NCBI GenBank assembly: GCA_964612065.1
Contig: CAZTCD010000001.1
Span: forward strand, 7,013 to 71,012
Length of the DNA stretch: 64,000 nucleotides
DNA from: an uncultured Bdellovibrionales bacterium
GTDB taxonomy: Bacteria > Bdellovibrionota > UBA1018 > CAIPTA01
Reading direction: 5' to 3'
The position numbers and the translations under genes are program-made. Below the pieces are notes generated by a model. It made no database searches, was not told the origin of the DNA, and saw only the letters and a program-made list of their open reading frames with translations. Shown here one piece after another: positions 2,537 through 53,609 of the stretch (positions within the stretch are counted from its first letter, which is position 1; every line of letters starts with the position of its first letter).

Positions 2537-2574
2537 GAGTGCTTTGGGGCCAGCTGCAAGGAAGCAGGGGGCTA

Positions 2575-3612
2575 ATGGTATCGATCAAGCATCTGAAAAA
2601 GGGCGACGCTCTCATGAAGGAGGGCGATACCTCGAATTCCATGTACTGGGTGCAAAGCGGCACTCTTAGATTATTCAAGAAAAAAGGCGCCGGATTTATC
2701 GAGCTGGGTGTGGTGCACTCGGGCGAAGTTGTGGGCGAAATGAGCTTTCTTGATAATCAGCCGAGATCGGCCTCGGTGGAGGCTCTTCAGCCCTGCGATA
2801 TCGTGGAAATTCCCCGCGGAAAATTCGAAGAATTTATCAATGCGCAACCCTCCTGGATGAAGTCGCTTATCCAGACTCTCGTGAAACGCCTGCGAACCAC
2901 CAATAACCGCGTTCGCGAGCTCGAGAGCGCTTCGATGGTGTATGCGAAGGATGAGTCAGGAAAAACCAGCAAAGTGCATGAATTCCTGTCTTCGGCAGAA
3001 TCCATGAAGTTGTGCTCAGGCCTGCTTTTGGCGGCGGCTCGAAACGGCGAAAAAAGTGCGGATGGCTCGAATAAGGTGAAGGCCGGTTGGCTGCAATTTT
3101 ACGGTGGTCAGATTTTTGGGGTGCAGCTTTCCAAGATTCAGGTTTTCACCGATGTTTTGCATGAATGCGGCGTGATCAAGATTGAAAAGCAAAAGGATTT
3201 CGTAGAGCTTCACCTTCTGGACACTGATCGCTTGGAGAAGTTTATTTATTTCTCTCACGAGCAAAACTCTTTGCCAGACGACAAGCAGATACCGATTACT
3301 GTTAAGGGGGTTCAGATTCTGGATTGTGTGAATGAGTTTGGCAAGGTGGCGGAAACCGCGAATGGGGCGGAAACCGCAACTATTGACATGGAGGCTGTGT
3401 TTAAAGCCGCTGCGGAAAAGCGAAATCAGAAAGTGCCTTTTGAGTGGGGGGCTTTCGATGAGCTGGTAAAGAGCGGATTCTCTCAGGAAATACGAATCAC
3501 CGGAGAGCAAAAACCAGCCACTTTCCAAGTTGCGAGGTTTCAAAAACTTTTCCCTCTGCTATTTCTGAGGCAGAAATTCAAAGATCTGAATAAAGACAAG
3601 CGGGATGGCTAA
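2575..3612 (+). CDS. cyclic-nucleotide-binding domain protein with an uncharacterised C-terminal domain of about 220 aa
   Basis: The N-terminus matches the cNMP-binding fold (GDALMKEGD...GEVVGEMSFLD...RSASVEAL). No HTH or other known output domain is recognisable downstream. The start is taken at the ATG at 2575 after a GGAAGCAGGGGG purine-rich stretch. The track's GTG at 2539 overlaps its own Shine-Dalgarno. Confidence 0.6.
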   Translation: MVSIKHLKKGDALMKEGDTSNSMYWVQSGTLRLFKKKGAGFIELGVVHSGEVVGEMSFLDNQPRSASVEALQPCDIVEIPRGKFEEFINAQPSWMKSLIQTLVKRLRTTNNRVRELESASMVYAKDESGKTSKVHEFLSSAESMKLCSGLLLAAARNGEKSADGSNKVKAGWLQFYGGQIFGVQLSKIQVFTDVLHECGVIKIEKQKDFVELHLLDTDRLEKFIYFSHEQNSLPDDKQIPITVKGVQILDCVNEFGKVAETANGAETATIDMEAVFKAAAEKRNQKVPFEWGAFDELVKSGFSQEIRITGEQKPATFQVARFQKLFPLLFLRQKFKDLNKDKRDG

Positions 3613-5716: not shown

Positions 5717-6601
5717 GTGTCTGATCTTTATACAGCTAATTATACGACTAAACTAAAACGGCAGAAGGTTGCCCCTGTCACGCAACTGCTCAATACTAAA
5801 TATATGGAAAACACGCTGAATCTTCTAATGCAGGACACCGCCCTTAAATGGTTTACCGTTGTGGCCGGTCGCCCGGTAGGACCTCTGAGCGCGAAAGAGA
5901 TAGCACAGAGAATCAAGGCCAACGAGCTTACTTTTGCTTCTCACGTCTGGAAGGACGGCTTCAGCGGCTGGACCCGAATTTATGACGTAATCGACTTTAA
6001 GCCTCTCTTGCCCGCGGAGCCCAGTGCCGCCCATTTGGCTGAAGTTCAGAAGAGTTCAAGCGGCGGAGCTCCTCCTCCTCTTGCGCCAGCTCAGAAGGAG
6101 GAGCTGCGGGTATGGTACGCATATCTTGATGAGGCTAGCTATGGTCCTGTATCTGATCGTGAAGTAACTTCACTTATTGAGAGTGGCCGTATAACCGCGA
6201 ACACTTATATGTGGACCAAAGGCTTTGATGATTGGCAGCTAGGGAAAGACATTGATTACTGGAAAAATCGCTTGGGTACCCCGGTTGCCACCAAGCCGGC
6301 GGATAAGAGAGCGGCTCCGAGAAAGCCATTTGAAACCCGAATCCTGCTTACTGATGGAAAAGAAGTTGGATGGGCCATCTGTAGAGATATCAGTGTCGGC
6401 GGAATGCAGGTACTTATGGACCATTCGCCAGGCCCTTCAGGTACGCAGCTCAAACTGAATGTGAACCCACAAGGTAGTGTGCCCGGCTTTGCTTGTGAGG
6501 GGGTAGTGGTTCGCATTCTCGAAGATGGAAGAGGATTTTCGTTCCGATTCACGTCTCTTTCGCCTGAAGCCCGTGCAGCCATTGAAAAGTATATTGGCTA
6601 G
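5717..6601 (+). CDS. tandem DUF4339 (GYF-like) domains fused to a C-terminal PilZ-like domain
   Basis: There are two copies of the W..VAG/YGP...E...I..G.l....vW..GF..W motif (WFTVVAGRPVGPLSAKEI...VWKDGFSGWTRI and WYAYLDEASYGPVSDREV...MWTKGFDDWQL). The C-terminus carries a DISVGG (DxSxGG) PilZ signature and a beta-barrel-like tail. The start is uncertain, either the GTG at 5717 or the ATG at 5804. Confidence 0.55.
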   Translation: MSDLYTANYTTKLKRQKVAPVTQLLNTKYMENTLNLLMQDTALKWFTVVAGRPVGPLSAKEIAQRIKANELTFASHVWKDGFSGWTRIYDVIDFKPLLPAEPSAAHLAEVQKSSSGGAPPPLAPAQKEELRVWYAYLDEASYGPVSDREVTSLIESGRITANTYMWTKGFDDWQLGKDIDYWKNRLGTPVATKPADKRAAPRKPFETRILLTDGKEVGWAICRDISVGGMQVLMDHSPGPSGTQLKLNVNPQGSVPGFACEGVVVRILEDGRGFSFRFTSLSPEARAAIEKYIG

Positions 6602-46640: not shown

Positions 46641-47282
46641 TTAGAGCTTGGTTAACTGCCTTCGATGAAAGAAGGTAAGCGTAGAGAGAATCTGCGCAAA
46701 TCCGAGCAGAAACACGTTTATCACCGGAATGAACAACAACAGATTCAACAAGAGCCCCAGAAAAAAATTTGAAACCGGATTCTTAAAGAACAAGCGAACT
46801 CGGAATGACAAGCGCTGGTCAAATCTGCCGTAAATGGCGCATAGAAAAGAATAGGCAGCAAGCCAGGCGATGAGAATGAACTGTACAGGTGCAAGAAGGG
46901 GAATCAAGGAGAGCGCCAGCAGGAATAAAGCCGCAGCAGCCACAAGAAGCGAGTGAAAAAACTCCCTGGCCAACCGTTTCATGCCGAAGTCCGGTGCAGG
47001 AATTTTTACTTCTCCGTAAACAGCGCGCTGAACCTCATCAATAATAGGATCTTCCACGGGTAGAAGGGAGAGTTTTCCAAAGACTAACCATGTGAGTAGG
47101 AAGACCAGCATCATGGCTGGTAATGAGATCCAAAGAGCGCTGGCTTGTAGAAGTGACTGCCACGTCAGATAAACTACAACCGATGCTGACGCAAAGGTAA
47201 TAACGCCAGGAAAGACGCCCAAAGCAAATAGCTTTGGGCGCGTAAAGAACAGCTTAATTGCATGAAAAGGAAGTGAGATCAC
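46641..47282 (-). CDS. hypothetical polytopic membrane protein (CysZ/EI24-like topology)
   Basis: The 213-aa ORF contains 4-5 TM helices. Its start overlaps the stop of the upstream metalloprotease gene by 4 nt. Confidence 0.35.
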   Translation of the reverse strand: MISLPFHAIKLFFTRPKLFALGVFPGVITFASASVVVYLTWQSLLQASALWISLPAMMLVFLLTWLVFGKLSLLPVEDPIIDEVQRAVYGEVKIPAPDFGMKRLAREFFHSLLVAAAALFLLALSLIPLLAPVQFILIAWLAAYSFLCAIYGRFDQRLSFRVRLFFKNPVSNFFLGLLLNLLLFIPVINVFLLGFAQILSTLTFFHRRQLTKL

Positions 47283-49807
47283 TTTTTCGCGTCTTGGTTT
47301 TTCTCAGCAGGTTTCCTCAAGAGCGCGGCCTTTAACGATCGCGCTACCTCGCGTTTTTGCGGAGAATCTGCATCTTGAATTTCGGCTTCAAGCATAATTT
47401 TAATACGGCCTGCCAGGCTTTGGTAGGCTTCCGACTGGTAATAAGACTTGAGTGCCTTGATGGATTCCATCCTTTCGGCGGCCGGCCGGTCATTCGTCCC
47501 TGCTTTTGCAGAAGCAAGCGATACCAATCCATTCATTACAACTTGTTCCAAATCCATTTTTTGGCCATTTCGTATATGAAAGGCGAGTGGTGCCGTAGGC
47601 GTGTTTCCCAAAGACTGGATGAATCTGAGTCTAAGTCTCGAAAGCAGGGCGGTTTCCATTCCCTTATAGGCTTTATCCAAGGCGGCTTCCAACGTCTTAA
47701 GCAAGGCTTCTTGATCTGTACGTTCGAGGCCTGCCACATAGGCAGAATTGGAAAGATAAGACAGAAGCTTGGTTTTGGTTGGATCCACGGCCGCACGAGT
47801 CACCGCCGGAAATTCATTCATTCCAATTCCCGCTTCAAAAGCTTGCAGCGCACGGTCACGCATCTCTTCTTCCTTCAGTCCTTCAGGTAGCACATCCTCT
47901 CGGAACACTTTCAAGGACTTCACGGACTGCGAGGCGAGATATCCGAAGCTGTTGGCGCTTGCGGCAATGTAGATGCCGGCGGTTCCAGAGACGCCAGCTA
48001 TCCCTTTTTTCATAGCCGCAATGAGTTCGTCTTTCGTCTTTACCGCGGACGCAGGAGGAAGAGAGAGCAGGGCATTGTCCATCTTTTCAGAAGTGATGGA
48101 TTGCATTCTTCCTCTATGTGCACCTTCTTTTGTGAAAAGCTCCAAGGCGCGAAGCGCTTGTGCCGTTGGGTCCGCCCCAATATCGTATCGATTGCAAAGG
48201 GGATCTACTCCGCCTTCATTTGAGTCGGCTTCTTCATCGTTGCAGGCGGAAAGCTCCGGATCCTGATCTTTTACATCTTTGCCTTCGTTATAGAGCACGG
48301 AGATGATCTGCCGGTCATACTCAAGGAGAGGGCCACTACTCTCTTCCAGGGCTGAGAAGGCACCGTCCTCTTCATTATAGTGATTGTAGTCCATAATGGA
48401 GGTGGAAAACGGCTTAGACGAGTCGTCTGCGTCGTAAGAAAGAGATCCACGGAAGTTGTGAGCAAGCCCGAGGGCGTGCCCAACTTCATGCATCACCACT
48501 CCCTTTAAAAGTTCTCTTGCAAACTCATCGGGCTTAACATCCGAATCGATTCGCACATTGAGCTCCTTGGCAGCCTCCATGCAGTGAATTGGAATTTTTC
48601 TGCCTGCAATTTTCCGCTTTGAAAGCAGCCGCTTTACTGCATCAACGCGAAGCATACGCTGTTGGTCGGTGTCGTCAGGCACTTGCGAGCCGGGGGTGAT
48701 TTTAGTCCAGTAGTCCTTGCCGATATTGATCCAGGCCAATGGAATATAAATCAAACTCTGGGTCTGGATTCCGGTAACGGGATCGGCATTTTGGCTTTCG
48801 TAAGCCGCGCCAGCTTCCTGAACAGTGTCCCACACGATCGTATTGAATCTCGGATCTCCCAGCTTAATCCCTTCTGGCAGCTTGCCTTCAAAGCGAATCA
48901 GATTTGGGATGTAACGGTTCCAGGCCTCAACGCCGTTTCTAATGTCTTTTAGGTATTGCTCTGGCACATTGCCGAAAACGTACCACTTAATTGGCTCTCC
49001 ATTTTTGCGGAGGAAGCGATTTGCGGCTTTGGTTTTTGTGCGAACACCAGGTTTAGATTCGTGAAAAAAGTCGCCTGCATCAAGAAATCGATAGCGTTCT
49101 GCCAGTGGATTTTCTTCCGCATTCGCCAGGATCGGTTTTGCGTCTGCTGGAATCACTAGATCGCGCGGGCGGATGGATTCCATGAAGCCGGCACGGCTAC
49201 CATCTTTTTCTTCAATCGTAGTCTCGATCAAAAAAAGTTCATCGGCAGCAATATGTTCGATAGATCGAATGTAAGAATACTTTTCCCCCTTTGATTCCTT
49301 CCCGAAAACAAAAGTTCCCAGAATAGGGGAGGCATTTTCTGTTTTAACGGTAATTAAATCCCCAACCCGGGCAACGATTGGAAGGTCCAAAATCAAGCGA
49401 GGTGGCATCGGTACGTCGCTCTCAAAGTTGATGCTCGCATCAGTCTCTAGACGAAGGCGATTGGCAAAAATTCGGAAATGAGCAGGAAGCTGGGTAAGCG
49501 AAATACCCATTAACGCGGTTTCTAACTCTTCCTCTCGAATAGACGAATTCTGAAGAGCGGCTCCGTATAAAAAAGTGCGGTTCAGCAGAGATTTAGTATC
49601 AAGGGTGATGGTTGCCTCAATTGATCCTGCAATGCGCCCGGGAATCAGGCTGCCGTCAGCTCCGATTGCCGGGGCCTTGGTTTCCTGCAGTTCTTTCACC
49701 TGAAGAGACTGAACTATAGGGGATGGCTCGCTCTCTTTCGAACATGAAAAAAGAGTGAAAGCTGAAATGGAAAGAGCGGCAAGCAAGAGCGATCGATGAG
49801 GCAGCAT
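47279..49807 (-). CDS. large metzincin-type zinc metalloprotease lipoprotein
   Basis: The lipobox is LFSC. The zinc motif is HEVGHALGLAHNF (HExxHxxGxxH). Size is 842 aa. Confidence 0.65.
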   Translation of the reverse strand: MLPHRSLLLAALSISAFTLFSCSKESEPSPIVQSLQVKELQETKAPAIGADGSLIPGRIAGSIEATITLDTKSLLNRTFLYGAALQNSSIREEELETALMGISLTQLPAHFRIFANRLRLETDASINFESDVPMPPRLILDLPIVARVGDLITVKTENASPILGTFVFGKESKGEKYSYIRSIEHIAADELFLIETTIEEKDGSRAGFMESIRPRDLVIPADAKPILANAEENPLAERYRFLDAGDFFHESKPGVRTKTKAANRFLRKNGEPIKWYVFGNVPEQYLKDIRNGVEAWNRYIPNLIRFEGKLPEGIKLGDPRFNTIVWDTVQEAGAAYESQNADPVTGIQTQSLIYIPLAWINIGKDYWTKITPGSQVPDDTDQQRMLRVDAVKRLLSKRKIAGRKIPIHCMEAAKELNVRIDSDVKPDEFARELLKGVVMHEVGHALGLAHNFRGSLSYDADDSSKPFSTSIMDYNHYNEEDGAFSALEESSGPLLEYDRQIISVLYNEGKDVKDQDPELSACNDEEADSNEGGVDPLCNRYDIGADPTAQALRALELFTKEGAHRGRMQSITSEKMDNALLSLPPASAVKTKDELIAAMKKGIAGVSGTAGIYIAASANSFGYLASQSVKSLKVFREDVLPEGLKEEEMRDRALQAFEAGIGMNEFPAVTRAAVDPTKTKLLSYLSNSAYVAGLERTDQEALLKTLEAALDKAYKGMETALLSRLRLRFIQSLGNTPTAPLAFHIRNGQKMDLEQVVMNGLVSLASAKAGTNDRPAAERMESIKALKSYYQSEAYQSLAGRIKIMLEAEIQDADSPQKREVARSLKAALLRKPAEKNQDAKK

Positions 49808-50081
49808 AGATTTCCCCTAAAGACAGGCGGTTCGGCCCTCTCGGGTTGAGTCGGGCGGTGACACTCTATGCAAAGCTGAAGCGGGGAGCAAAGAAAACTG
49901 TGGGCAACACTGGTTTCCATTGGTGAAACGGATGAAAAAGCGGAAAAAGACAGCGGAAATAGGTAAAAAATTGACTGAGTTGGTATTTTTTTCAGGGTCT
50001 TCAGGGAAACATTTGTTTGAAAGCTGCCGTGTAAGTAATCGGATTCTTGGCCAAAAATTGGCGGCCCGTTAAGCTTTTAAG

Positions 50082-51425
50082 ATGGCTACTTCCGTTCCCA
50101 AGCTTCTTCTTATTTCTGACAATCAGGATATTAAGGAGCTACTTACGTTCCAGATCACGTCGCGGTTTGCTCTTAAAGTACAGGAGTGTTCTTCGGCGCG
50201 GGACGCAGCTGAGCTTTTAAAAAAAGACATTACATTGGAGCTTTTGGTAGGGCCCTATAACGGGCCCAACTCGGTGCTCGTCAAAGCATTGAGAGAGCGG
50301 AAGAGCAAAGTTCCTGTTCTATTCTTTTTTGATCCACTTGTAGTTAAGCCCGAGAAAGAAGATCTGGGCGGCTTGAATGTAATCGGCACGGTGGAACATT
50401 CGAATCTTGTAGACGGAGTACTGAGTGCCATAGAGAAGTTTCTTCCTATGGGTGAAATTGAAGGTGGTGACTCGGAGTTTTGTCCTATTCGCACCAACTT
50501 GCTGATCAAAGTGTCTCCGTTAAAAAGTGAAATTTATATTCGCTTGAACGAAACAAAGTTTGTGAAGCTATTCCGGGCTGGAGACGAGTTCGATGCCGCC
50601 GATCTCGAAAGGTACTATCAGGAAAAAAAGGTGGAGTATATGTACCTCCGCCGCAATGAGACTGCTGAATTCATCATGAAGTTCCGAAGGGAGCTTGAGG
50701 AACTTCTGCAGAGAAAGGATCTTCCGAAAGAGGAGGCATTGGCTGCTTCGGAAATGTCGCATGAAGCAATTCATGAGCTGGTGCACAGTATCGGCTTTAA
50801 CGAAGAGGTGCAGGAGCTTGCCAAGAAAAACGTGGAGATCACTCTCAAAGCGATCGGATCCAATCCGCGACTCAGTGACCTGATCAATAAAGTAAGCCGG
50901 GAAGGGAGCTATATATCACAGCATTCCACGCTGCTCGCGCACGTAGCCTGTTGCGTTGCCAAAGAGATGGACTGGGGATCAGACGCCACGTTCTCCAAGC
51001 TGGCATTGGCGGCTTTCATGCACGATATTTCCGTAAAAGACCCTGAAATGGCGAAAGTGAACTCCTTGCGCGAACTTGAAGAAAAAAAAGGCGCGTTTCC
51101 GGCAGAAGAGATGAAGCAGTATCACCTGCATCCCGCAAAGGCAGCCGACGTGGTGAGAAGTTTCAAAGAGGTTCCGGCCGATGTAGATATCATCGTGCAG
51201 CAACATCATGAGCGTCCGAATGGCAGCGGTTTTCCACGAGGCTTGCTGTTCAACTATATCTCGCCACTTTCTAGTTTATTCATCGTCGCTCATGAGCTGA
51301 CTCAGGCGATTCTTTTTAAGAGGACATCCTTTAATCTTGGGGAATGGGTTTCTGAGAAAAAACCGGCATTCAATCAAGGCAATTTCAAGAAAGTGATGGC
51401 GGCGCTTGATAAGGTGAAGCTGTAA
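50082..51425 (+). CDS. HD-GYP-family protein with a degenerate HD-GFP motif and an N-terminal pseudo-receiver domain
   Basis: The HD motif is FMHDISV. HHERPNGSGFPRG is read against the HD-GYP signature HHExxDGxGYP, showing D to N and Y to F changes. The N-terminal 120 aa are REC-like (LLLISDNQD...) but no phosphoacceptor Asp is evident. Confidence 0.65.
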   Translation: MATSVPKLLLISDNQDIKELLTFQITSRFALKVQECSSARDAAELLKKDITLELLVGPYNGPNSVLVKALRERKSKVPVLFFFDPLVVKPEKEDLGGLNVIGTVEHSNLVDGVLSAIEKFLPMGEIEGGDSEFCPIRTNLLIKVSPLKSEIYIRLNETKFVKLFRAGDEFDAADLERYYQEKKVEYMYLRRNETAEFIMKFRRELEELLQRKDLPKEEALAASEMSHEAIHELVHSIGFNEEVQELAKKNVEITLKAIGSNPRLSDLINKVSREGSYISQHSTLLAHVACCVAKEMDWGSDATFSKLALAAFMHDISVKDPEMAKVNSLRELEEKKGAFPAEEMKQYHLHPAKAADVVRSFKEVPADVDIIVQQHHERPNGSGFPRGLLFNYISPLSSLFIVAHELTQAILFKRTSFNLGEWVSEKKPAFNQGNFKKVMAALDKVKL

Positions 51426-52175: not shown

Positions 52176-52252
52176 TGGCGGACCCGATACGATTCGAACG
52201 TACGACCTTTGCCTTCGGAGGGCAACGCTCTATCCAGCTGAGCTACGGGTCC
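52176..52252 (-). tRNA. tRNA-Arg (anticodon CCG)
   Basis: The reverse complement folds as a cloverleaf: acceptor GGACCCG/CGGGTCC, anticodon stem TTGCC/GGCAA, loop CTCCGAA, T-loop TTCGAAT, and an encoded CCA. Confidence 0.85.
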
Positions 52253-52397: not shown

Positions 52398-53609
52398 CTA
52401 GTTGAGGAACTTCAGCAGGTCAACCACGCCACCCGCACGAACGCGGTCGGTCCATAGAGGCGAGCGGGTGCTCGTATTCACCAATTTCTCCGCCGTGGCT
52501 TCCGATGGCACGAAACTGCCACTTAAGCCTCTGGCAAGGGCTCCTGCCACGAGGGGCGTAGCCATCGAGGTTCCGCTCATCGATTGGAAGGATCCACCTG
52601 GAACAGTCGAAATAATGTCTGCGCCTGGAGCCGCTACGGAAACGTATTTGTCTCCGTAGTTTGAAAATGACGCCATTGCGCCACGGCTATCCGAGGCTGC
52701 AACAACTACCATATTCGAGAGGCCAGTGAATCCGGCGGGAAAGAGCGGATCGCGCTCCAAGCCCGTGTTCATATTCAGCGATTCATTGCCGGAGGCGGCC
52801 ACGAAAATAGCGCCTTTAGAGCCTGCGTATTCAATGGCTGCGCGGAGAAGCGCGAGGTTGGGTTCGGACGGATCAAAGGTTCCCCAGCTCCTGTACACTC
52901 GCCAGGAGTTAGATAGCACCCTGGCGCCATTGTCTACGGCGTACTTTATGCCAGCGGCTGCATTCGAAAGGAATCCACGGGCTTCGCTGCCAATGATTCG
53001 AACCGGCATGATCTTAACGCCGGGAGCAACACCTACGGCACCAGTGCGTGCATCAGGAGCCCCGCCGATAATCCCCGCACAGTGGGTGCCGTGTTGGTCG
53101 CCATCCATGGGGTCGCCGTCTTTCGCATCGAAATCGTAGCCGTGAACATCATCAATAAATCCGTTGCCGTCATCATCGAGTCCGTTGTTCGGAACTTCCC
53201 GGGAATTCGTATAAATATTCCTGGTGAGAGCTGGGTGATTGTAGTCCACGCCAGTATCCAGCACTGCGACGATAACGTTTTGGCCTTGGCGTGTTGCAGG
53301 AAGCTGGGAATACTTCATTGCATCGGGATGCCAGGCACGCCGGGCGGTTGCATCGTCGGCTCCTTGGTCTTCGTCAGCCGGAAGGCCGATTTGAAGGTCT
53401 TCTGTAACTTCCTCTGCAGCAGATCTGAAGGAAGCCAGAACATTGGCAAACTTCGGAGCTTCCACCACCACATAGGTATCTTCGCCAAACTGCAAGGTCT
53501 GAACGGTTTTACCCACCACCGTTCCAATTGGGTTTTTAAGAATAAAGCGCTCCGCCTTAGCTGTGGCTGGAGCAACAATCAACGCGAGAACAAGAACCAG
53601 TTTTTTCAT
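52398..53609 (-). CDS. secreted subtilisin-like serine protease (peptidase S8)
   Basis: The signal peptide is MKKLVLVLALIVAPATAKA. The catalytic triad motifs are DTGVDYNHPAL, HGTHCAGII and GTSMATPLVAG. Confidence 0.85.
   Translation of the reverse strand: MKKLVLVLALIVAPATAKAERFILKNPIGTVVGKTVQTLQFGEDTYVVVEAPKFANVLASFRSAAEEVTEDLQIGLPADEDQGADDATARRAWHPDAMKYSQLPATRQGQNVIVAVLDTGVDYNHPALTRNIYTNSREVPNNGLDDDGNGFIDDVHGYDFDAKDGDPMDGDQHGTHCAGIIGGAPDARTGAVGVAPGVKIMPVRIIGSEARGFLSNAAAGIKYAVDNGARVLSNSWRVYRSWGTFDPSEPNLALLRAAIEYAGSKGAIFVAASGNESLNMNTGLERDPLFPAGFTGLSNMVVVAASDSRGAMASFSNYGDKYVSVAAPGADIISTVPGGSFQSMSGTSMATPLVAGALARGLSGSFVPSEATAEKLVNTSTRSPLWTDRVRAGGVVDLLKFLN

Follow-up and report, generated by a model that had tools for sequence, protein, structure and literature searches.

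The stretch of DNA analysed here, called the window throughout, comprises 64,000 nucleotides from an uncultured Bdellovibrionales bacterium (contig CAZTCD010000001.1 of assembly GCA_964612065.1, positions 7,013 to 71,012) and encodes on its forward strand a 447-aa protein with an HD-GYP-type domain in which the signature tyrosine is replaced by phenylalanine. We refer to it as the HD-GFP protein. It had been picked out, for 50082-51425, in a sequence-only reading made by a model from the letters and a list of open reading frames (ORFs) alone, and translation confirms both the ORF and the two motifs quoted at that time, FMHDISV (aa 312-318) and QHHERPNGSGFPRG (aa 374-387), which had been read correctly. 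The ORF is a genuine gene, because it matches the Pfam family HD_5 (PF13487; aa 271-408, E 2.5e-14) with 53.8 bits against a gathering cut-off of 27.2, has counterparts in public data (one identical protein and more than 140 homologues, mostly annotated as "HD-GYP domain-containing protein" and assigned to Bdellovibrionota), and lies in a conserved gene order. HD_5 is also matched by 49/49 members of the family alignment from which the AlphaFold2 model of the protein was built (mean predicted local distance difference test score, pLDDT, 90.4). From its architecture (Table 1), the HD-GFP protein is a cytoplasmic three-domain signalling protein belonging to a large Bdellovibrionota-specific family; it represents a variant of the HD-GYP/Bd1817 kind that is uncharacterised and specific to its lineage, and neither a new class nor an artefact. 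The receiver-like N-terminal domain and the HD domain of the earlier two-domain picture were thus borne out, but a middle module at aa ~130-260 had been overlooked.

Table 1. Features of the HD-GFP locus and of related loci (window positions unless a locus is named).
Feature	Coordinates	Strand	Basis or remark
Complete ORF: pseudo-receiver, Bd1817-type N-terminal domain with linker, HD-"GFP" domain	50082..51425	+	447 aa; profile and structure searches
Degenerate receiver (pseudo-receiver), aa 6-122	50097..50447	+	AlphaFold2 pattern, Foldseek, profile matches to receivers
Pro58 codon CCC at the phosphoacceptor-Asp position	50253..50255	+	Alignments to 4e7o and RR468, column counts
Bd1817-type N-terminal beta module and linker helices (DUF3391-like), aa ~130-260	50469..50861	+	phmmer and profile matches to 3tm8, Foldseek match to 3tmb
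HD-GYP-type domain, "GFP" variant, aa 270-447	50889..51422	+	Pfam HD_5; PDB matches Bd1817, V-cGAP3, DvhD
HD dyad H314-D315	51021..51026	+	Invariant in 49/49 of the family alignment and 127/128 added representatives
HHERPNGSGFP motif, aa 375-385; F384 codon TTT at 51231-51233	51204..51236	+	Translation, alignments
H404-E405; E405 aligned with the last metal ligand, H404 a family-specific insertion	51291..51296	+	MAFFT against 45 canonical HD-GYPs
Divergent intergenic region, DUF4953 Met-zincin (-) / HD-GFP (+)	49808..50081	.	274 nt
Conserved block and sigma70-like element	50027..50075	+	Alignments across 6-8 orthologous loci
PP2C-cNMP gene	L084 2739-4004; L090 2700-4004; L085 2732-4000; L081 6713-7999; L086 4710-5978		

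The HD domain retains a complete predicted set of di-metal ligands, consisting of H281, H314, D315, H350, H375, H376 and E405. These residues are invariant in the 49-sequence family alignment and kept in 120-128 of 128 independent representatives at 50% identity, the best-scoring ones that could be aligned among the 915 returned at E<=1e-30 when 1.84 billion cluster representatives (50% identity) were searched exhaustively with phmmer. H281, H314 and D315, which correspond to H189, H221 and D222 of the Persephonella marina enzyme PmGH, are found in 49/49 family members and in at least 126 of the 128 representatives, and the second-site ligands H350, H375, H376 and E377 (PmGH H250, H276 and H277 for the histidines) are invariant in the alignment, as are G383 and P385. 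Q374 and E377 are near-invariant among the independent representatives. Position 405 is D or E throughout the family, and its alignment depends on the program: MAFFT pairs E405 with the canonical Asp (PmGH D305, equivalent to Bd1817 N265), HMMER pairs H404 with Bd1817 N265, and AQD, VED or AED occur here in the wider family. Y277 is typical of the binuclear "Y/F" subfamily of HD-GYPs (subfamily described in PMC4159591). The metal-binding residues that the sequence-only reading had recognised in H314-D315 and HHE are therefore present and near-invariant family-wide, and the predicted metal centre appears intact and under strong selection.

The surroundings of the metal site depart from canonical HD-GYPs in several respects, as seen when the family, Bd1817 and V-cGAP3 are aligned with 45 canonical HD-GYP domains from diverse phyla (L036-L080). 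The tyrosine-to-phenylalanine change noticed earlier is genuine and family-wide: F384 takes the place of the GYP tyrosine, which in HD-GYPs forms a hydrogen bond with the substrate phosphate, in 49/49, 124/128 and 153/164 sequences, with Tyr in only 2/128, whereas the canonical domains have Y in 45/45. The supposed D-to-N substitution, by contrast, is no deviation, since the accepted consensus is HHExh(D/N)GxGYP (Galperin & Chou preprint) and the residue at N380 is also N in 18/45 canonical HD-GYPs. Five further changes had gone unnoticed. G275 replaces the Asp of the RDPY motif (PmGH D183; G in 34/49 of the family, D in 45/45 canonical domains). All members carry L, V, I or F (V318 in the query protein) at the third position after the HD dyad, where HDxGK has its Lys (PmGH K225), so that the canonical HDIGK (45/45) reads HDI[ST][LVIF]. 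The SHRPYRP loop with its guanine-binding RxY[K/R] (R in 45/45 canonical domains) is a 7-residue gap, KPG has become KK[S/A/G] (KKG in the query), and an extra His, H404, precedes the last acidic ligand. Moreover, the family has 7 additional residues in its lid, Gln for the second Asp/Glu of ADxxD/E, and a conserved Phe (F417, in 43/49) at position four of RxxX. Compared with characterised HD-GYPs, the protein thus has the metal ligands, a GFP in place of the canonical GYP, and no phosphoacceptor Asp in its receiver-like domain. No description of an HD-GYP "GFP" variant, of a receiver (REC)-DUF3391-HD-GYP architecture or of a pseudo-receiver HD-GYP was found in the literature.

The N-terminal domain was rightly called a pseudo-receiver. 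The model shows a (beta-alpha)5 pattern in aa 6-122, Foldseek matches the domain to CheY, Spo0F and RR468, and family profiles match receiver structures at E 9e-6 to 1e-3; Pfam PF00072 gave no match in a scan of the query protein, and KaiA_N matched three family members weakly (best E 0.0033). The phosphoacceptor Asp (RR468 D53 and its 4e7o counterpart) aligns with Pro58, which sits within a conserved [A/G]P[Y/F]NGP motif in the orthologue clade of the query (at least 44% identity). Pro occupies this position in 20/24 members of that clade, while 19/25 distant family members have D or E. In addition, the conserved receiver Thr is Phe83, the conserved Lys after beta5 is absent (the query has H106), and the acidic pair is reduced to one of two (Ser12/Asp13). 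Since phosphoacceptor, Thr and Lys are all lost, the domain is not switchable by His-Asp phosphotransfer. It is also the least conserved of the three domains, with a mean pairwise identity of 0.42 in the orthologue clade versus 0.62-0.69 for the other two. The query carries five additional N-terminal residues, MATSV (50082-50096), compared with most family members, which begin at the equivalent of residue 6.

The middle module links the query to Bd1817 of Bdellovibrio bacteriovorus. The alignment runs from native residue 1 of Bd1817 (PDB 3TM8) across its beta-rich N-terminal domain (NTD), the linker helices and the HD-GYP domain, with phmmer E-values of 1.1e-10 for the query and 3.2e-19 for the family profile, and Foldseek matches the whole Bd1817 chain in 3tmb (E 8e-10, 335 columns). 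The beta part of the module has a mean pairwise identity of 0.69 within the orthologue clade, joint highest with the HD core, and L140, L147, R154, L155, K159, F164, G167, F170, D174 and K182 are near-invariant. Because of this high conservation, the module is a probable input or partner-binding site. R165-A-G-D168 aligns with the RxxD of the Bd1817 NTD (R34/D37), and residue 165 is R or K in just 31/49. Membership of Pfam DUF3391 (PF11871) was considered and dropped, as there was no match at E<=1 for the query and none at E<=0.1 for the 49 family members; Bd1817 itself has been reported to be far from the DUF3391 consensus.

The query is no isolated case but one member of a large Bdellovibrionota family of which GFP is the hallmark, as the 915 cluster representatives attest. 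All identifiable sources are Bdellovibrionota, namely metagenome-assembled genomes (MAGs) of Bdellovibrionia, Bacteriovoracia and Oligoflexia, and a genome scan together with a second homologue search encountered the family only in MAGs and uncultured Bdellovibrionota. Several MAGs carry at least two HD-GFP genes on different contigs (L001/L017, L012/L020, L026/L030 and L034/L035), which indicates paralogous expansion within genomes. A sister clade from Pseudobdellovibrionaceae and Bdellovibrionaceae MAGs (L032, P0121-P0150) combines the same middle domain and HHERPDGxGFP with a true receiver, which has ED/DD, SDFNMP and KPF, matches PF00072 and is annotated as "response regulator RpfG family". 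Given this true receiver and the D or E at position 58 in most distant relatives, the ancestor was in all likelihood a REC-NTD-HD-GFP response regulator, and the orthologue clade would then have lost the phosphoacceptor and fixed Pro58.

In the orthologue clade, the HD-GFP gene follows genes for an AMP-binding/acyltransferase protein, RlmL, EI24 (-) and a DUF4953 Met-zincin (-). Downstream lies an RluA-type pseudouridine synthase gene (-), which shares up to 41 nt with the HD-GFP gene where their 3' ends meet: 41 nt in the window (51385-51425) and 32-41 nt in L084, L090 and L086. This convergent overlap showed no terminator-like site. In 5/9 syntenic loci, with identities to the query of 47-75%, a gene encoding PP2C_2 with a C-terminal cNMP_binding domain (cNMP, cyclic nucleoside monophosphate; protein of about 420-434 aa) lies directly upstream of the HD-GFP gene in the same orientation. 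The distance to the HD-GFP start is a 4-nt overlap in two of these loci, abutment within 0-1 nt in two and 22 nt in one, and the two genes are probably co-transcribed in these sister genomes. As this PP2C-cNMP gene was not found in the distant D58-type family loci checked, the association seems specific to the clade without a phosphorylatable receiver, which suggests that a cyclic-nucleotide or Ser/Thr-phosphatase-linked input has replaced the lost His-Asp input.

The gene is missing from the query locus, from that of its closest relative (P0002, 84%) and from two further lineages. A tblastn search revealed neither a remnant in the 274-nt spacer nor a copy in the window, the sole match being an unrelated cNMP-binding ORF. 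The partner gene appears to have been deleted from the query locus, with the ORF excised cleanly; that MATSV is a relic of an in-frame deletion is speculative, the PP2C protein of L086 starting with MATF. The product of the unrelated ORF (2539-3612) is 357 aa long and has a cNMP-binding domain at its N-terminus (Pfam E 2.8e-23), followed by a C-terminal part without assignment; no other cNMP-binding gene was seen in the window.

The length of about 270 nt given by the sequence-only reading for the upstream intergenic region was right (274 nt), but the region is not unusually long: the equivalent spacer ahead of the first plus-strand gene (PP2C-cNMP where present) measures 106-289 nt in orthologous loci, and several other gaps in the window reach 276-445 nt. 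It is an ordinary divergent promoter spacer. Near its end, a conserved block CCGTGTAAGTAATCGGATTC (50027-50046) comes before a -35-like TTGGCC (50047-50052) and, after a spacer of 17 nt, a -10-like TAAGCT (50070-50075). Four or five sister loci show the same -35/-10 layout ahead of the PP2C start codon, and the query spacer is homologous to the one in front of the PP2C gene in L084 and L090. From this conservation we infer a sigma70-type promoter, and since TAAGCT ends 6 nt before the ATG and a Shine-Dalgarno sequence is lacking, the HD-GFP mRNA may be leaderless. A scan for consensus promoters and terminators reported no plus-strand promoter and no terminator; the element described here, recognised only through alignment across loci, scores below its threshold. 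A sigma54 reading of TGGCC-N-TTGGC was dropped because the spacing is not kept in L084 or L082, and a riboswitch or other known RNA was rejected because an Rfam search of 49700-50200 found nothing at E<=1.

Among the surrounding genes, the DUF4953 Met-zincin (47279-49807, -; motif HEVGHALGLAHNF, lipoprotein-like N-terminus) and a secreted subtilase (52398-53609, -) flank the locus and fit a predatory, protease-rich genome; a tRNA-Arg(CCG) gene lies at 52176-52252 (-). The PilZ fusion to which the sequence-only reading pointed is confirmed as an unusual protein with two GYF_2 domains followed by PilZ (5717-6601; RxxxR...DxSxxG present), but it is 44 kb away and unlinked. Motif scans of the window detected no further cyclic di-GMP (c-di-GMP) genes and no GGDEF gene, and the PilZ gene was accordingly rejected as functional context.

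We favour the explanation, with a probability of about 0.43, that the HD-GFP protein is a metal-containing module of the Bd1817 type and not a canonical c-di-GMP phosphodiesterase, and that it signals through a ligand or partner or slowly turns over another phospho-ligand. In such a scheme the pseudo-receiver, which no longer takes phosphoryl input, and the middle module would together set the output, without phosphorylation. The HD domain, which lacks the residues that in characterised enzymes contact c-di-GMP or support catalysis, would hold metal, much as Bd1817 does, which has a di-iron site yet showed neither phosphodiesterase activity nor c-di-GMP binding in vitro (PMC3188283; PMC4159591). 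The metal centre and the GFP loop could in that case serve to bind another phospho-ligand, to turn it over slowly, or to hold a partner protein, and in the sister genomes the PP2C-cNMP partner might add a further level of control. The altered residues do not all carry the same weight. In PmGH the exchanges D183A and K225A abolish activity (PMC4159591), which makes the glycine and the hydrophobic residue at these two positions the strongest arguments and Y-to-F the weakest. The earlier suggestion of altered catalysis or a sensor role therefore holds insofar as a textbook c-di-GMP phosphodiesterase is unlikely, but Y-to-F alone was weak ground for it.

Several observations speak against a non-canonical module of this kind. 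The ligands are conserved nearly perfectly in a family that extends down to ~30% identity, as would be expected of an enzyme, and the known inactive HD-GYPs HnoD, PA2572 and ECA3548 have decayed ligands. For Bd1817, the lack of activity was reported through a personal communication only, and the absence of a stimulus may account for it. PmGH Y285A, R314A and K317A keep most of their activity (PMC4159591), so the loss of the equivalent residues is no proof of lost c-di-GMP hydrolysis. MAFFT, furthermore, sets K325 opposite the HDxGK Lys after a 7-residue insertion, and K or R is found there in 22/24 orthologues; HMMER instead aligns V318 at this position, with Bd1817 H187, and K325 as a possible substitute lysine would apply to the orthologue clade only. 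Finally, R414 (in R414-T-S-F417) follows E405 by exactly 9 residues, which is the spacing between PmGH D305 and R314, although it is poorly kept (R in 13/49, G in 62/128).

The near-invariance of the metal ligands, Q374 and E377 in the 128 representatives fits best with catalysis, and the main rival, possible if somewhat doubtful, is an active metal-dependent phosphodiesterase for a substrate other than c-di-GMP, such as 3',3'-cGAMP (cyclic GMP-AMP), c-di-AMP, a linear dinucleotide or a cyclic mononucleotide. Changes to the base pocket would in that case come from the GFP Phe, F417 and the shortened loop, and the nucleotide sensed by the PP2C-cNMP partner would be either identical or coupled to the substrate. 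Specificity is known to depend on the fourth RxxX position (bioRxiv 10.1101/600031), which lies here in a remodelled loop with Phe in most family members; the adjacent cNMP-binding protein gene in 5/9 loci points in the same direction. Such an enzyme would, however, have to work with Gly and a hydrophobic residue at the positions of D183 and K225, both essential in PmGH; moreover, the literature searched offered no HD-GFP enzyme as a biochemical precedent, and the nearest structural relative, Bd1817, is inactive. An extension of this idea to the entire clade, as phosphodiesterases or receptors for a non-c-di-GMP messenger in which a PP2C gated by a cNMP-binding domain replaces the His-Asp input in the pseudo-receiver subclade, is unlikely. 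It would concern at least 900 clusters at 50% identity, essentially all in Bdellovibrionota and with several paralogues per genome, and, if true, would give predatory bacteria a cyclic-nucleotide-to-HD-domain signalling module not described before.

An ordinary binuclear (Y-subfamily) c-di-GMP phosphodiesterase, with substitutions due to neutral drift and made constitutive by its pseudo-receiver, is what the HD_5 match above threshold and the public protein name would imply; all ligands are present, Y277 is typical of the subfamily, and PmGH tolerates alanine in its GYP motif and RxxK (PMC4159591). We nevertheless regard it as improbable, because five separate features that are found in 45/45 canonical HD-GYPs are changed and fixed across the family, which argues for selection for a different function and not for drift, and because the family profile misses PmGH at E<=0.01 and finds Bd1817 at 3e-19. 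Least probable of all is that the di-metal, probably di-iron, centre serves as a sensor of O2, NO or redox state that signals by binding a partner through the exposed GFP loop. The di-iron sites of HD-GYPs are redox sensitive, oxidation of either iron inactivating the enzyme, the GYP loop lies open at the surface, where a part in the binding of GGDEF proteins has been ascribed to it (PMC4159591), and the ligand set is His-rich and invariant. Against it, motif scans saw no GGDEF gene in the window, and the proposal overlaps with the Bd1817-type module favoured above rather than competing with it.

These considerations extend beyond a single gene. Among c-di-GMP phosphodiesterases, the HD-GYP class is the less well understood, and Bd1817, whose structure was the first of the class, is still without an assigned function. 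The traits that set Bd1817 apart, which are the lack of the GYP Tyr, the catalytic Lys and the guanine-binding Arg, define a very large lineage-specific family and are not one protein's quirk, and a perfect metal site in spite of these losses argues for a conserved activity in predatory bacteria that is yet to be identified. Should the ligand or substrate be something other than c-di-GMP, the numbers of c-di-GMP phosphodiesterases counted from Bdellovibrionota genomes are too high. The family offers a tractable route to the function of Bd1817-like proteins, with natural test pairs in the clades with true and degenerate receivers and in the loci with and without the PP2C-cNMP partner.

Among known systems, Bd1817 (B. 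bacteriovorus HD100, PDB 3TM8, DUF3391-HD-GYP, "HD-G-P"), which stems from the same phylum, is the best match of the query in both sequence and fold over ~320 residues. Both proteins lack the Tyr of GYP, the Lys of HDxGK, the Arg that is consensus in RxxK and the Glu for a third metal; N stands at the D/N position in each, and the RxxD of the NTD aligns (R165/D168). Overall identity is only ~20%, however, and the query differs by its additional N-terminal pseudo-receiver, a lid 7 residues longer, HH where Bd1817 has HE, a predicted acidic last ligand in place of N265, Phe where Bd1817 has a deletion, and Gly where it retains the Asp equivalent to D183. PmGH (PDB 4MCW/4MDZ), the reference structure for active HD-GYPs, shares the seven core ligand positions (H189, H221, D222, H250, H276, H277 and, in the MAFFT alignment, D305), but the query lacks E185, leaving a site of the binuclear type, has Gly for D183, a hydrophobic residue at K225 and Phe for Y285, and does not conserve R314 and K317. 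The relationship is distant in searches: PmGH is undetected by the family profile at E<=0.01, with Bd1817 detected at 3.2e-19, and Foldseek reaches it only at E 2e-3. The second-best PDB sequence match (E 4e-5) is the cGAMP-selective V-cGAP3 (PDB 5Z7C). In HD-GYPs the fourth position of RxxX tunes the substrate, K/R favouring c-di-GMP and Q/N cGAMP, as in Bd2325 (bioRxiv 10.1101/600031); cGAMP-selective members (V-cGAP3, Bd2325, PmxA) keep GYP, HDxGK, KPG and Rxx(Q/N), whereas the query has none of these. RpfG-type regulators (REC-HD-GYP; TM0186, Xanthomonas campestris RpfG) likewise join an N-terminal receiver fold to a C-terminal HD-GYP-type domain, but the query has a 130-residue Bd1817-type insert between the two, no phosphoacceptor, GFP and a shortened RxY[K/R] loop. 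The N-terminal domain of KaiA, itself a pseudo-receiver, is likewise a receiver fold without phosphoacceptor and has no specific homology to the query, whose own pseudo-receiver is set apart from KaiA in that it most probably derives from the true receiver still present in the sister clade.

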